DNA of 64,000 nucleotides from Patescibacteria group bacterium (GCA_034658935.1 JAYEGE010000008.1:68678-132677), one strand, 5' to 3'. Counted from the stretch's first letter, positions 4,371-16,876 are shown. The notes: generated by a model not told the origin, from the sequence alone. Program-made: numbers and translations.

Positions 4371-5282
4371 ATGGAGGAATTAAATAAAAACCAAATAGTT
4401 CTCTTGACTCTACTAGTTAGCTTTGTCACCTCGATTGCTACGGGCATTGTGACCGTTACTCTTATGGATCAGGCTCCGGCCCCGGTGACTCAGACCATTA
4501 ATCGGGTAGTTGAGCGAACTATTGAAAAGGCGGTCCCCGGCGAGACCAAAATAGAGACGGTCGTTAAGGAGGTCCCAGTAGTGGTAACCGAAGATAAATT
4601 GATTGTCGATGTTATTAACAATACTTCTCCGGGGGCGGTTAGGATTACCGACCTTGAGGGCGAGACTGTGGCGACTGGTTTTATCGCTGATGCAAGCGGT
4701 TTGGTGGCGACTGCCAAGTCCCTACTCATTCCTCTGGCCCCTATCGAGACTATTGATGATGATGCCGCCGGGCTCACAAATGAGGAGGAAGTAGAGATAG
4801 ATGCTGTAGAGGAAGAGACTCCAGAGTCGGAGCCTGCCCCCACTGATTACTTGGTTCACTTTAATAATGGTCAGAGTCTCTCAGCTAAATTACTAGAGAC
4901 CAATGCTGAAGTGGAGGTGGCTCTCTTGAAAGTTGATTTGGGGGAAGTGGCCGATATTGGTCAATTGGCCGGAGTTGGTGGCACCACCAGCAGGCAGCCA
5001 ATAGTTCTATCTCTCACTGACGACGAGCCTTTGCCTGGTCAGACAGTGGTCGCGCTTGGCCTACCAGATGCTGGGCCGATTAATGTCTCTGGAGGTTTGG
5101 TTTCTAGTGTTTACGCTGACGGCGCGGGCGTGACACTAATCGTTACTACTGCCGCCAATGTTAGTAACCTGGGTGGCCCACTCTTCAATACCGATGGTGA
5201 AGTGATTGGTCTCAATCGGTCGGTTGGGTCAGCGATTGGTGCGGAGGCGATTAGACAAGCTATTACTGAAATAAGCACTTAG
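4371..5282 (+). CDS. membrane-anchored trypsin-like (S1C/HtrA-fold) protein, probably catalytically inactive
   Basis: N-terminal TM helix. The C-terminal region aligns to the HtrA protease domain. The conserved GNSGGPL is replaced by SNLGGPLFNTDGEVIGLN (Ser to Leu), and the His region reads ATAKS. Confidence 0.6.
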   Translation: MEELNKNQIVLLTLLVSFVTSIATGIVTVTLMDQAPAPVTQTINRVVERTIEKAVPGETKIETVVKEVPVVVTEDKLIVDVINNTSPGAVRITDLEGETVATGFIADASGLVATAKSLLIPLAPIETIDDDAAGLTNEEEVEIDAVEEETPESEPAPTDYLVHFNNGQSLSAKLLETNAEVEVALLKVDLGEVADIGQLAGVGGTTSRQPIVLSLTDDEPLPGQTVVALGLPDAGPINVSGGLVSSVYADGAGVTLIVTTAANVSNLGGPLFNTDGEVIGLNRSVGSAIGAEAIRQAITEIST

Positions 5283-12709: not shown

Positions 12710-13672
12710 ATGTCAGAAAGTCGTGCTAACGCTGTTTTTTGGATCGAAGTTGATAAGATTCGACCCAACCCCTTCCAACCTCGGAAGGAATTTGACGAGG
12801 ACAAGATCCAGACGCTGGCCGATTCTATTCGCCAATATGGTATTCTCCAGCCTCTAGTTGTGACCCGCCAGGAAGTGTCTCGAGAAGATGGTGGTATTGG
12901 AGTGGAATACGAGCTAATCGCTGGCGAACGTCGTTGGCGTGCCTCTCAGGTCGCTGGGATTTCTCAGGTACCAGCGGTGATTCGTGATAGTGAAGAAAGC
13001 GACAAGCTTAAATTGGAGATGGCGATTATCGAGAATCTTCAACGTGAAGATTTAAATCCAGTAGACCGAGCTCACGCTTTTCAACAATTAACTGAGCAAT
13101 TTGGCCTGAAGCATCATGAAGTGGGTAAGCGGGTAGGTAGGAGCCGTGAATATGTTTCTAATACTATCCGCATTGCCGCCCTTCCAGAAGAAATGCTCCA
13201 GGCCCTGGTGGAGGGGAAGATTAATGAAGGGCATACCAGGCCACTCTTGATGTTAAACGATAGACCCGAGCAACAACTGACCTTCTTCCAAGAGCTCTTA
13301 GTCAAGAAGATGACTGTTCGTGAAGCTGAGTCTATTGCTCGCCGTATTGCTTACGACAAGGTCCGAAAAAAAGACCATCTCATTGACCCACAAATTGTTG
13401 AGATTGAACAGCAATTAACCGAGCAATTGGGAACTCGTGTTCGGGTAGAGCGCAAGGATGTCGGCGGTAAGGTGCTAATAGATTTTTTCTCTCCCGATGA
13501 TCTAAGTGCTATCCTGAATCTACTCTCGGCCAGACAGCAAGTTACCAATCCGGCTCTGGAGCAAGCGGGGTTGGAAGAGTCAGTCGGCGAGGGTGAGGCA
13601 GTTGCCGAGGGGGCCAGCCAACCTGAAGAGGGAGAAGAAGGTCTTTACGATCTCAAAAATTTTTCTATCTAA
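12710..13672 (+). CDS. parB: ParB/Spo0J-family partition protein
   Basis: ParB N-terminal box (GERRWRAS), an HTH region and an acidic C-terminus. Confidence 0.85.
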   Translation: MSESRANAVFWIEVDKIRPNPFQPRKEFDEDKIQTLADSIRQYGILQPLVVTRQEVSREDGGIGVEYELIAGERRWRASQVAGISQVPAVIRDSEESDKLKLEMAIIENLQREDLNPVDRAHAFQQLTEQFGLKHHEVGKRVGRSREYVSNTIRIAALPEEMLQALVEGKINEGHTRPLLMLNDRPEQQLTFFQELLVKKMTVREAESIARRIAYDKVRKKDHLIDPQIVEIEQQLTEQLGTRVRVERKDVGGKVLIDFFSPDDLSAILNLLSARQQVTNPALEQAGLEESVGEGEAVAEGASQPEEGEEGLYDLKNFSI

Positions 13673-13799: not shown

Positions 13800-13940
13800 T
13801 CACGCAGTTCTTTCAAATAGGCTTAGAATCTTGAGACTAGCTTTTTGTAGCTCATATCGGGCTCCAAAGAGCCAGTCTCAAGACGAGACAGTCGCTTACC
13901 CACAGCGTTTGTGGGTGATTTAACAAAGGGAGGTATAACG

Positions 13941-14756
13941 ATGACGATTCGATCGATCACGCCCAACCGAACCCAGAGGCAAGAGAAACAGTACAAGCGA
14001 TTCGTCGGGGATGCGGGTGACCGCGGACTCGTCGAGGTGGATCCTGACAAGGACGCTATTCAACGGCTCATTAGTCGTGGCGGCGAGTTCCAGGGCCACC
14101 TGATCGCAGGCATTCGCCGGTTCTCGGCCGAGCAGACCGACTACACGCACGCGCAGTCTATCCTCGGTACGGACTTTATCATTCCCGAGGAGGTCATGGA
14201 AGCTCGTTCCGGCATCACCTACGCCGGCAGGCATCTGGCCTTCCTGGCGGAGACGATGCCGAGCGAGGAGAATCTGCGGTGGTGCAAGGACAACGGCTAC
14301 GCCGTCATGCCGGCACCGCCTAAGCCGATTGCACTTTTGCCCGTCCGTGCCCTCAAGCCTGCCAACTTCTATCTGAAGACCGGTGGATGGTATGCGGATG
14401 AAAGTGAGAAGTTTGCCTCAAGCGACAAGACCCGTCGGGGATGGCTCGCGGTTCGCAAGACCCTGGTGCCGAACTCGACCTCAAAGACTTGGGACGAACA
14501 AAACGAGCTCCTCTCGAGTGTCGAGGAGGTACCGAATGCGGCCGAGATGGCGTGGTTTATCACCACCTACTTCGACGTCCGTGGCATTCGTCTTTTCGAG
14601 GACATCTGGGTTCGTACTTCTAGCGTCGACTCGGACGGTAACCATGTCGACGTCGGCCATTTCGGCCAGGACGGTCTCCACGTCGGCGACGATTGGGATG
14701 ACGGGCGCAGTGGCAACGTCGGTGTGTCCTCTGCTCGGAAGTTTTCTGAGCCTTGA
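13941..14756 (+). CDS. DGR target (variable) protein with C-terminal variable repeat
   Basis: Strong SD (AAGGGAGG) 7 nt before the ATG at 13941. The last about 42 codons are the VR matching the downstream TR. The gene is GC-rich relative to its surroundings. The fold was not identified; the ligand-binding region may be C-type-lectin-like (inference). Confidence 0.75.
   Translation: MTIRSITPNRTQRQEKQYKRFVGDAGDRGLVEVDPDKDAIQRLISRGGEFQGHLIAGIRRFSAEQTDYTHAQSILGTDFIIPEEVMEARSGITYAGRHLAFLAETMPSEENLRWCKDNGYAVMPAPPKPIALLPVRALKPANFYLKTGGWYADESEKFASSDKTRRGWLAVRKTLVPNSTSKTWDEQNELLSSVEEVPNAAEMAWFITTYFDVRGIRLFEDIWVRTSSVDSDGNHVDVGHFGQDGLHVGDDWDDGRSGNVGVSSARKFSEP
14620..14744 (+). repeat. DGR variable repeat (VR)
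   Basis: 125 nt matching TR at 15213-15337 with 13 mismatches, 11 of them at TR adenines. The 3' 35 nt are identical to TR and are IMH-like. Confidence 0.85.
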
Positions 14757-14757
14757 G

Positions 14758-14771
14758 CCGCCAGCTGGCGG
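14758..14771 (+). promoter_or_regulatory. GC hairpin downstream of VR (CCGCCAG|CTGGCGG)
   Basis: Perfect 14-nt palindrome 14 nt after the VR end, just past the stop codon. It is positioned like the stem-loop that promotes DGR homing in phage BPP-1. Confidence 0.55.
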
Positions 14772-15212
14772 TCTGGAGGGCTTGAGCCTCTTGGATTCTT
14801 GACCCGTCTGACGAACCTTGTCTAGCCCGTGCCGACGGCACGTCGGCCTAGGGAGCCTCCGCGCAAATTTTTCTACCAGGGATATTTGCCGGAGGCTCTT
14901 TTTATTTACCTACATATCACTTATAATACAGATATCTTGCTCATGAAGGCTAGATTACGGTTTAGTCTCGCGAGATGTCTCATCTTTGAGATCGCCAGAA
15001 TGTTTGCGTTTACGCCTGCCTGCTGGCAGGCAGGGATTCAAGCAGAGCGCGAAAAAGATAGGGATTTAACTTCTTGCTCGTTTCTAGCAGAGGTTTTTTG
15101 TCTTTAGGCAAGAGATGCTCTCGAATAAAATACAGGAAGGAGAGGACATAGGGATTGGGCTTTTGTCTACCCACAAACCTCGGCTTCTAGTGGCACAGAC
15201 GGAAACGGGCAA

Positions 15213-15337
15213 CTAGCGTCAACTCGGATGGTAACCATGTCAACGTCGGCAATTTCGACCAGGACGGTCTCAACGTCAACGACTATTGGGATGACAAGCG
15301 CAATGGCAACATCGGTGTGTCCTCTGCTCGGAAGTTT
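15213..15337 (+). repeat. DGR template repeat (TR)
   Basis: Intergenic A-rich copy of VR. In the VR frame it reads as a run of AAC/AAT codons (SVNSDGNHVNVGNFDQDGLNVNDYWDDKRNGNIG). It is not part of any ORF. Confidence 0.85.
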
Positions 15338-15369
15338 CTTCTCTACTATAAACGCCTCTTTCGGGGCGT

Positions 15370-15726
15370 TTAGTCTTTCTGTTGTTTGGAGGATTTAATC
15401 CAGCCACCAAGCATTCGTCCGATTTCATCCATAATTTCTTGGAGGGAGGTGTATTTCATGACATCGATGGATTTTGTGTCATGCGAGAGTCTGGCAAAGA
15501 TGCGAAGTAAGTTAAGCTTGATACTTACTTTATTCAAAACTGGCACCTTTTCAGTTCTAGGCATCGATGTTGCTTGTAGGATTCCCTCGATAATATCAAG
15601 CGAGGTATCTTCGCATCTCTGCCACAACGTATGTCTGTCTTGTTTAGGAACGGAAGCGCGGATATGATGTACAGTTTTATACAAATCATACACTTTTTTG
15701 AAAATCGGTATATCAAATTCATCCAT
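15370..15726 (-). CDS. avd: DGR accessory variability determinant (Avd), four-helix-bundle protein
   Basis: 118 aa. The C-terminal GRMLGGWIKSSKQQ closely resembles Bordetella phage Avd (GRILGSWIARVNRKGQ). It is adjacent to the TR and the RT. Confidence 0.75.
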   Translation of the reverse strand: MDEFDIPIFKKVYDLYKTVHHIRASVPKQDRHTLWQRCEDTSLDIIEGILQATSMPRTEKVPVLNKVSIKLNLLRIFARLSHDTKSIDVMKYTSLQEIMDEIGRMLGGWIKSSKQQKD

Positions 15727-16787
15727 GAGAACATTTGAACATATTTACAATCTGATAATTTCTCCCGAGAGCCTTTTCATTGCTTGGAAACGATTTAGCA
15801 GAGATAAACACAAAAAGAAAGATGTTCTGCAATTCGAGTGGAATTTGGAGCAAAACATTTTTGCATTGTGCCGAGAGCTGAAAAACAAAGTCTACCAGCA
15901 TGGACCATATACTGATTTTTACATTACTGACCCCAAACAACGACACATCCACAAGGCACTCGTTCGGGACAGGGTATTGCACCATTCGATTGTCCGCATA
16001 CTCACTCCGATCTTTGAACCAACATTTATCGCTAATTCTTTTTCTTGTCGAATTGGTAAAGGAACACACAAAGGAGTATTGATGGTGGAGAAAATGTTGC
16101 GCACGGTGAGTCGAAATAACACTAGAAGTTGCTACGTTCTTAAATGTGATATCAGGAGATTTTTTGACTCCATTGACCATAATATCCTGCTCAAAATGTT
16201 GGAGCAAAAAATTAAAGACCCAGCCGTGATGTGGCTCTTGGAAAGAATTGTCAGCAGTTACGAGAGAGAGGGAGAGAGAGAGGAAAAATTGCGCGGGGAA
16301 AGGGATACCCGTTGGCAATCTCACCTCCCAATTGTTTGCGAATATCTATATGAACAAGTTCGATCAGTTTGTAAAGCATGAATTGAGAACAAAATATTAC
16401 GCACGATATGCGGATGATTTCGTAATTATAGCAGATAATAGAGAAAAACTCGAGCGACTGGTGGTGCAAATCACAAACTTTCTTTCGGGCCAATTGGCGC
16501 TTTCGTTGCACCCGCATAAAGTTTCTATACAGGCATATACTTGCGGGGTAGATTTTCTGGGACAAATTATTTTTCCACATTACCGTCTACTTCGCGCCAA
16601 GACAAGAAAGAGAATCTTCAAGCAAATTAGACGTAAGGTTGAGCGATGCAACGATGGTTTAATTTCAGAGAAAACTTTGCACCATTCACTACAATCGTAT
16701 TTGGGCGTTCTCTCACATACCAATACATATGGGGATCTCAAGGAATTAAAAAATCAGGTTTGGTTTTGGTCCATAAAGGATAATTAG
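15725..16787 (+). CDS. DGR reverse transcriptase, reading frame interrupted in a (GA)n tract near 16262-16283
   Basis: The N-terminal part (15725-16381) has GPYTDFYITDPKQRHIHKAL and CRIGKGTHKGV. The second frame (16248-16787) has GKGIPVGNLTSQLFANIYMN and YADDFVII. The IGxxxSQ motif is diagnostic of DGR RTs versus group II intron RTs. Confidence 0.85.
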
Positions 16788-16876
16788 GGGGCCCTTGTTG
16801 TCTTAAATGAGCAAGTGGTGAGGGGTTTTGGTGCCTTCCCCTCCTTCGCTAAAGCTACGGTAGGACTGCGGCACTA

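Follow-up and report, generated by a model that had tools for sequence, protein, structure and literature searches.

Mechanistic knowledge of reverse transcription in diversity-generating retroelements (DGRs) comes entirely from a single phage element in which the accessory RNA is located 3' of the template repeat (TR). That element is the DGR of Bordetella phage BPP-1 (gene order mtd-avd-TR-brt; PMC6182149); one strand of its spacer, Sp 53-70, forms base pairs at the TR 3' end as well as with the stretch immediately upstream of TR, and Avd is bound by a stem-loop that directly follows TR on its 3' side (Handa et al., preprint 10.1101/2023.10.23.563531). Among the Candidate Phyla Radiation (CPR) DGRs of one survey, 90% have the architecture B3, written as TR-(avd)-RT, where RT stands for the reverse transcriptase and parentheses mark the reverse strand (Wu et al. 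2018, NAR 46:11, PMC5758913). Priming in these cassettes has so far been unclear, because the inverted avd occupies the position of the phage accessory RNA; the phage-like elements inferred for CPR DGRs in the Handa et al. preprint were derived from 40 nt upstream and 100 nt downstream of TR. Here we analyse a complete DGR, with Avd, RT and a TR and variable repeat (VR) showing adenine-specific differences all present, which is located on the chromosome of a metagenome-assembled genome (MAG) of a Patescibacteria group bacterium, within a stretch of 64,000 nt (GCA_034658935.1 JAYEGE010000008.1:68678-132677; hereafter the window, from whose start all coordinates are counted).

The comparative evidence indicates that this cassette is probably an ordinary CPR-type B3 DGR, whose TR-RNA would be a small structured transcript of its own and not the product of read-through involving avd. 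A broader proposal, which we put forward tentatively, is that the RNA of B3 DGRs may be circularly permuted with respect to that of the Bordetella phage: a non-coding RNA of ~440 nt extending from promoter to terminator, with a 280-nt 5' leader, in which one strand clamps both template ends and probably primes, so that neither the synthesis nor the use of the TR-RNA would depend on the transcripts of avd and RT. To this the proposal adds a hypermutable (GA)n tract that may control RT production, either by switching it on and off as a contingency locus or by way of transcriptional slippage. The components on which the argument is built are the following:

14922-14927, plus strand: -10 box TATAAT, predicted promoter of the TR-RNA, conserved in the leader alignment
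14934-15212, plus strand: structured TR-RNA leader, defined by nhmmer matches adjoining TR and by covarying helices
15059-15085, plus strand: leader clamp strand, predicted partner of the TR 3' end and tail, and also of the 12 nt 5' of TR
15213-15337, plus strand: TR, the repeat shared with VR; 31 adenines, 11 of which differ in VR
15349-15372, unstranded: 10-bp hairpin with a tetraloop between TR and avd, overlapping the avd stop codon; terminator-like on the plus strand
15370-15726, minus strand: avd, 118 aa, Pfam bAvd match
15724-15727, unstranded: CATG common to the avd and RT start codons, as read in the sequence
15725-16787, plus strand: DGR reverse transcriptase with one frameshift, as two RVT_1 halves in different frames

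Gene order and the avd/RT junction

An earlier note on this DNA had described a minus-strand avd whose start codon overlaps that of a divergent RT, with TR downstream of avd, and had called the architecture uncommon. The elements all lie where it placed them. The profile search on which it had staked the Avd assignment succeeded: the minus-strand open reading frame (ORF) matches Pfam PF22296 bAvd (E 1.9e-17, 64.1 bits against a cut-off of 40), residues 8-112 covering profile positions 3-106 of 107, the extent of the whole four-helix domain, and an identical protein from a Patescibacteria MAG is named 'diversity-generating retroelement protein Avd' at NCBI. The overlap in CATG is equally confirmed, since positions 15720-15729 read catccatgag: the RT starts with the ATG at 15725-15727, while reverse-complementing 15724-15726 gives the ATG of avd, so that two bases are in common. 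Upstream of the assigned start the avd ORF has no other start codon, and in RT the N-terminal sequence MRTFEHIYNLIIS can be aligned with intact homologues from its first residue onward.

What does not hold is the rarity. The cassette of the window corresponds to B3 as defined, with TR (+) at 15213-15337, avd (-) at 15370-15726, RT (+) from 15725 and no other accessory gene, and it shares with the B3 cassettes of PMC5758913 the order and orientation of TR, avd and RT, the CPR/Patescibacteria host and an upstream target gene with a 3' VR; there is no difference in gene order. To place it among its relatives we collected 80 genome loci encoding RT relatives (L001-L080), locating RT, Avd and TR/VR in each, and used metagenome loci (L081-L200) as an independent set. 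An avd on the minus strand abuts the RT start in 52/80 genome relatives (53/81 including the window), and 37 of these 53 loci have a plus-strand TR ending 1-70 nt before the avd stop; TR/VR pairs were detected beside many RT relatives in genome contigs. Among the metagenome relatives avd lies on the minus strand in 58/58. The start codons of avd and RT are spaced by -15 to +24 nt in the relatives, the CATG overlap of the window (-2) being found at 4/39 genome and 10/71 metagenome loci, and CATATG (0) and +3 being other common spacings. The head-to-head avd/RT junction with almost no intergenic space is thus the norm of the lineage, and an architecture that makes up 90% of the CPR set of PMC5758913 and is near-universal among the relatives of this RT is not an uncommon one. 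PMC5758913 does not discuss promoters, antisense transcription, start-codon overlap or an RNA element upstream of TR, and the words 'promoter' and 'antisense' have 0 occurrences each in it.

A structured leader and the making of the TR-RNA

The interval between VR and TR measures 456 nt. When it was used as an nhmmer query (14757-15212), matches were obtained directly 5' of TR, on the strand of TR, in many relatives whose RT is 50-60% identical. A profile built from 17 loci matches 39/80 genome loci and 53/58 metagenome loci (those with enough flank); its matches, with E down to 1e-60, always adjoin TR on its own strand, at a fixed distance from RT, and the 64-kb window contains a single one, at 14932-15215. 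The 18-locus alignment shows no variation at positions 2 (A) and 6 (T) of the -10 box, and an nAnnnT box matching at least 4/6 positions is present just upstream in 83/84 leaders, 71 of which match at least 5/6. Altogether, ~90 related loci carry a -10 box and a ~280-nt leader directly 5' of TR.

The leader alignment supports six helices, namely 14938-40/14970-72, 14948-55/14960-67, 14992-95/15049-52, 15001-11/15034-44, 15074-85/15201-12 and 15089-92/15118-21. RNAalifold gives 42 consensus pairs, 32 of them with compensatory changes. Paired cells amount to 97.3%, compared with 72% in shuffles and 39-50% when the partners are slid, double-change cells number 207 against 22-37 in controls, and covariation is scored at 0.83, where shuffles reach 0.31 and slid controls 0.11-0.18. 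An Rfam search with E up to 1 returned only a chance-level match to Chlorobi-RRM and no family, and the leader is undescribed in the DGR literature searched, the coverage of which was incomplete, so that it may already have been described. In the window a perfect 8-bp hairpin, CCTGCCTG-CTGG-CAGGCAGG, is inserted at 15015-15034 in the terminal loop of the fourth helix; it is missing from the other 17 aligned leaders and is specific to the window.

Downstream of TR, a hairpin occurs at the place equivalent to 15349-15372, between TR and avd, in 27/36 relatives, usually as an A-tract, a GC-rich stem and a T-tract, the form of a bidirectional intrinsic terminator; the window hairpin itself is probably a bidirectional terminator and/or an Avd-binding stem-loop. 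It is strongly supported by the comparison of loci that TR is embedded in a conserved plus-strand RNA consisting of the -10 box, the ~280-nt leader, TR and the hairpin that abuts the avd stop. The plus sense of TR, as the earlier note had it, is upheld, with the A-specific mismatches, the conserved promoter and the structured leader all on the plus strand. The leader-TR module is moreover inverted relative to RT in two loci, L035 (191-460) and L043 (2614-3007); in L035 it is co-directional with avd. Taken together, the conserved -10 box, the covarying leader, the hairpin and these inversions speak for a separate TR-RNA transcription unit, of ~440 nt in the window, and this is the arrangement that we favour.

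That arrangement departs from the earlier note on one point, the claim that the TR-RNA must read through antisense avd toward RT. In the corresponding model the TR-RNA and the RT mRNA would be one plus-strand transcript from upstream of TR into RT. A corollary would be that avd is transcribed convergently, yielding RNAs complementary over 357 nt that may regulate each other. Such a transcript would agree with the cassette's only consensus promoter lying upstream of the leader, with the failure to detect an RT promoter and with the weak U-tract of the window hairpin, but the terminator-like hairpin that separates TR from avd in 27/36 relatives, the opposite strands of the leader-TR module and RT in L035 and L043, and the fact that all cis needs of the template are accounted for upstream of the hairpin make it unlikely. 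The necessity of read-through is not sustained, then, given a -10 box, a leader and a terminator-like hairpin that all precede avd; it is further weakened by the two inversions and by the lack of a locus-specific pairing between the TR 5' flank and antisense avd (see below).

Concerning the ends of the template, the longest-range leader helix joins 15074-15085 to 15201-15212, the 12 nt directly 5' of TR, and shows compensatory changes in 9/12 pairs. The adjacent leader segment 15059-15074, which includes the invariant ACTTCTT block, is complementary to the TR 3' end and tail at 15330-15345. Over 77 non-identical loci this leader:tail pairing scores 72.1 within the own locus and 58.0 with other loci (Mann-Whitney p 4e-6, Wilcoxon p 1e-4), with no significant own-locus effect for four control blocks. 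A strict column-wise search for the leader:tail duplex found nothing, because the pairing register shifts between loci; it was the register-free helix score that gave the signal. The minimum free energy fold of the single sequence 14934-15380 (447 nt) contains both clamp helices as one continuous stack together with the terminal hairpin (z = -3.15), and the predicted pairing of 15068-15074 with 15330-15336 provides a candidate priming duplex with the TR 3' end. We infer from these data that one leader strand clamps both ends of the template.

A different placement of these functions would keep the phage geometry, with an Sp-like priming and RT-binding RNA located 3' of TR, in antisense avd, the hairpin serving only as Avd-binding stem-loop and the leader acting in stability or regulation. 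Putative Avd-binding stem-loops together with upstream/downstream 'cPRT stop' duplexes have been reported in 207/278 Avd-containing DGRs, those of CPR among them (preprint 10.1101/2023.10.23.563531), and a hairpin is indeed present right after TR. Against this, the 45 nt upstream of TR show no preference for the antisense avd (first 130 nt) of their own locus in RNAduplex (own -24.0 vs other loci -23.8 kcal/mol, p 0.48, in a crude test that allows long interior loops), these nucleotides are engaged instead in the strongly covarying helix with the leader, and the coding constraints of avd leave little space for a structured RNA of 140 nt. A BPP-1-type pairing of the TR 5' flank with RNA 3' of TR was thus rejected, the flank pairing with the 5' leader, and we consider a 3' Sp-like RNA very improbable.

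The mechanism that we favour would run as follows. The TR-RNA would be a self-contained transcript of ~440 nt, starting near 14934 and mostly ending at the hairpin, which would also terminate the convergent avd mRNA. Leader strand 15059-15085 would hold both template ends in a clamp, by pairing to the TR 3' end on the one hand and to the 12 nt 5' of TR on the other, in the topology of Sp 53-70 of the Bordetella phage DGR RNA, with the strand coming from the 5' side, so that the RNA looks circularly permuted; the 3' hairpin would be placed like the Avd-binding stem-loop of the phage element. The avd and RT genes would be expressed divergently from weak promoters within each other's first codons, possibly as leaderless mRNAs, and some RT expression may come from terminator read-through, for which the strong leader promoter and the weak U-tract offer a possible source of RT mRNA. 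With its RT currently out of frame (see below), the element of the window is presumably silent.

Several points weigh against this mechanism. The start and the 3' end of the TR-RNA are predictions from sequence, and the U-tract after the window hairpin is poor (GUCUUUCU), so that transcription could continue to a substantial extent into antisense avd. Within the cassette a consensus promoter is found only in front of the leader, which favours some read-through RT expression, no convincing sigma-70-type promoter having been found for avd or RT. The leader:tail duplex joins sequences that are conserved on both sides, and its covariation signal is moderate in consequence. Lastly, the RT frameshift may mean that this copy is defective.

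As regards the mRNAs, a sigma-70 scan for avd and RT promoters gave no site near the junction, and the -10 boxes within 60 nt of either ATG are 4/6 hexamers only, none reaching 5/6. The statement of the earlier note that each promoter must lie inside the other gene is a reasonable inference, given the gap of -2 nt, for any dedicated avd or RT promoter. Two conserved motifs, TTGAAAATTGGTATATC upstream of RT and TATAAATTTTCAT upstream of avd, were considered as promoters and rejected, since the N-terminal peptides of Avd and RT are conserved and account for them. The missing Shine-Dalgarno sequence was likewise rejected as a special feature of these two genes, since only 4/38 long ORFs in the window have one. 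Several window genes show a TAnAAT box 6-9 nt before the ATG, e.g. those starting at 12710, 41503, 57361 and 3013, which suggests that leaderless or very short-leader mRNAs are widespread in this Patescibacteria genome; leaderless mRNAs are plausible in this organism because of that spacing.

Repeats, target gene and the reading frame of RT

Upstream of the leader, the window holds the recipient side of the element:

13911-14756, plus strand: DGR target gene, an ORF of uncertain start (GTG 13911 or ATG 13941) with VR at its 3' end
14620-14744, plus strand: VR, a 125-nt direct repeat with TR, 90% identity
14757-14771, plus strand: GC-rich inverted repeat GCCGCCAGCTGGCGG, read from the sequence, directly after the target-gene stop codon and 12 nt past the VR end
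14852-14907, plus strand: stem GGAGCCTCCG...CGGAGGCTC followed by a T-run, read from the sequence; probable target-gene terminator

TR and VR differ at 13 of 125 nt, and 11 of these mismatches are an A in TR (plus strand) opposed to a G or C in VR, the other 2 being a T in TR; by our own arithmetic, the binomial probability of at least 11/13 mismatches at A, given 31 A in 125 nt, is ~1e-5. Most of the differences thus fall at TR adenines, as is characteristic of DGRs. VR occupies the last 45 codons of the target ORF, with the TR-A mismatches at codon positions 1 and 2. Over its last 26 nt (14719-14744) VR does not differ from TR and resembles an initiation of mutagenic homing (IMH) sequence, and the GC-rich inverted repeat occurs only after VR, with no counterpart after TR. 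Such a combination, in which VR and TR share an IMH-like 3' end and VR alone is followed by a GC-rich repeat, is a DGR character, and the repeat lies in the same position as the one described downstream of IMH for DGRs (PMC5758913); here both functions are assigned from sequence. In DGR target proteins the variable region is placed in a ligand-binding fold of the C-type lectin or Ig kind; a Pfam search of the present target protein with E up to 5 matched no family. G+C is ~58-62% in the target gene/VR region and ~36-43% in avd and RT (13850-14900 vs 15400-16800 of the window), and TR resembles the target gene in its high G+C.

A point overlooked in the earlier note is that two frames, 15725-16381 and 16248-16787, share the RT between them, with half of an RVT_1 domain in each. 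Removing one G from the GGGG at 16295-16298 restores an RT of 353 aa, which matches more than 5000 proteins at E of 1e-20 or below. The best 120 of these matches measure 341-391 aa (mostly 349), are up to 64% identical, align over 98-100% of the length of the repaired RT and come, where the source is named, from Patescibacteria or unclassified bacteria. The repaired RT retains all columns that are invariant in an alignment of 28 sequences (A1, the repaired RT itself and 27 of the best matches), and, as in RTs of the DGR clade, a GxxxSQ motif, VGNLTSQLFANIY, stands ahead of YADD (the catalytic YxDD box), the one frameshift at 16295-16298 aside. The break lies in a variable loop just before the GIPIGNLTSQ motif and beside a (GA)4-GG-(GA)5 tract, part of the following feature:

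16262-16283, plus strand: degenerate (GA)n tract, (GA)4-GG-(GA)5-GG, within the RT ORF

A frameshift inside the GA tract of the window was considered and rejected, the frame-A peptide EREGEREEKLRG following intact homologues up to the GGGG run.

In the 80 genome loci, RT is broken at this position only in L059 and L069, both with pure (GA)11-12 tracts (4557-4578 and 4559-4582, respectively). Scanning for (GA)7 or longer ahead of the GIPIGNLTSQ motif revealed at least 120 metagenome stretches with a pure (GA)7-21 tract at the corresponding position of RT. In the 109 informative (GA)n loci listed, the RT halves are in frame in 18, shifted by +1 in 47 and by +2 in 44, i.e. ~83% are out of frame; apart from this, neither half is incomplete. 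When each flank cluster is represented by one locus, 16/96 are in frame among the matches listed, where one third would be expected (p 3e-4). Three loci with near-identical flanks and differing repeat numbers, L194, L082 and L092, have n = 7, 8 and 9 and frames 2, 1 and 0, as predicted. This pattern fits an RT that is phase-variable or dependent on slippage; no literature linking DGR RTs with repeat-mediated switching was found.

The simple sequence repeat (SSR) contingency loci of phase variation in Neisseria, Campylobacter and Helicobacter offer a comparison. As in these, the relatives have an intragenic dinucleotide tract that varies in length within a lineage and moves the downstream frame. 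The differences are that the tract lies in a retroelement RT of uncultured Patescibacteria and that, in the window, it is interrupted, the break being best placed in the adjacent G4 run at 16295-16298. In the window, RT could carry a fixed lesion or be an OFF allele, or the break could come from a sequencing error.

Runs of 8-11 consecutive G also occur at or near the RT start or the avd/RT junction in L022, L041, L044 and L046, and in L088 (258-284) such a run directly follows a (GA)8 tract; they may represent a second kind of slippery tract affecting RT expression.

The broken frame raises the question of whether the cassette is a decaying, non-functional DGR whose arrangement has no present function. 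The two TR/VR differences at non-adenines would point the same way as the frame break, but differences of this kind are common in CPR DGRs, the lesion is a single one, the invariant columns of RT in A1, avd, the leader helices, TR and the hairpin are all intact, and one frame break at this spot is the majority state in otherwise intact relatives. We thus regard decay as rather unlikely.

Comparison with described RNAs and significance

The window DGR has in common with that of BPP-1 (PMC6182149) the pair RT and Avd, the adenine-specific transfer from TR to VR, an identical 3' end resembling IMH, a VR followed by a GC-rich repeat, a TR with a stem-loop immediately on its 3' side and, as predicted here, a single RNA strand whose two partners are the TR 3' end and the segment that directly precedes TR. 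It differs in that avd is inverted and lies between TR and RT, in that the clamp strand and ~280 nt of structured RNA are 5' of TR, where BPP-1 has a 140-nt 3' spacer, and in that the RNA seems to end at a terminator rather than to run on into the RT gene. No sequence similarity was detected between the leader and Sp-type regions. The likely picture is then that the CPR RNA has the topology of the phage RNA with most of the accessory RNA moved to the 5' side of TR.

This disposition also recalls another family of RNAs, that of the retrons. Retron msr-msd RNA is a single short non-coding transcript in which the template is preceded, on its 5' side, by structured priming RNA. The likeness to the window cassette is one of layout only: structured, probably priming RNA 5' of the template, and a distant pairing that brings in the template 3' end. 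The RT belongs to a different clade, and there is no evidence here for a branched G or a stable msDNA.

The divergent layout that first drew attention to this locus changes nothing by itself, since cassettes of the largest DGR group, which is also the least studied, are normally built in this way; showing it to be standard saves the cassette from being treated as an oddity. Specialists may find two things of interest, the (GA)n tract and the conserved leader that carries the clamp, both as suggested by the comparison of related loci. The covarying leader and the two-ended clamp define a concrete candidate RNA, 14934-15380, on which RT and Avd would act. The repeat tract, if it does switch the frame of RT, would offer cells whose genomes are tiny a simple means of leaving a mutagenic enzyme inactive most of the time.

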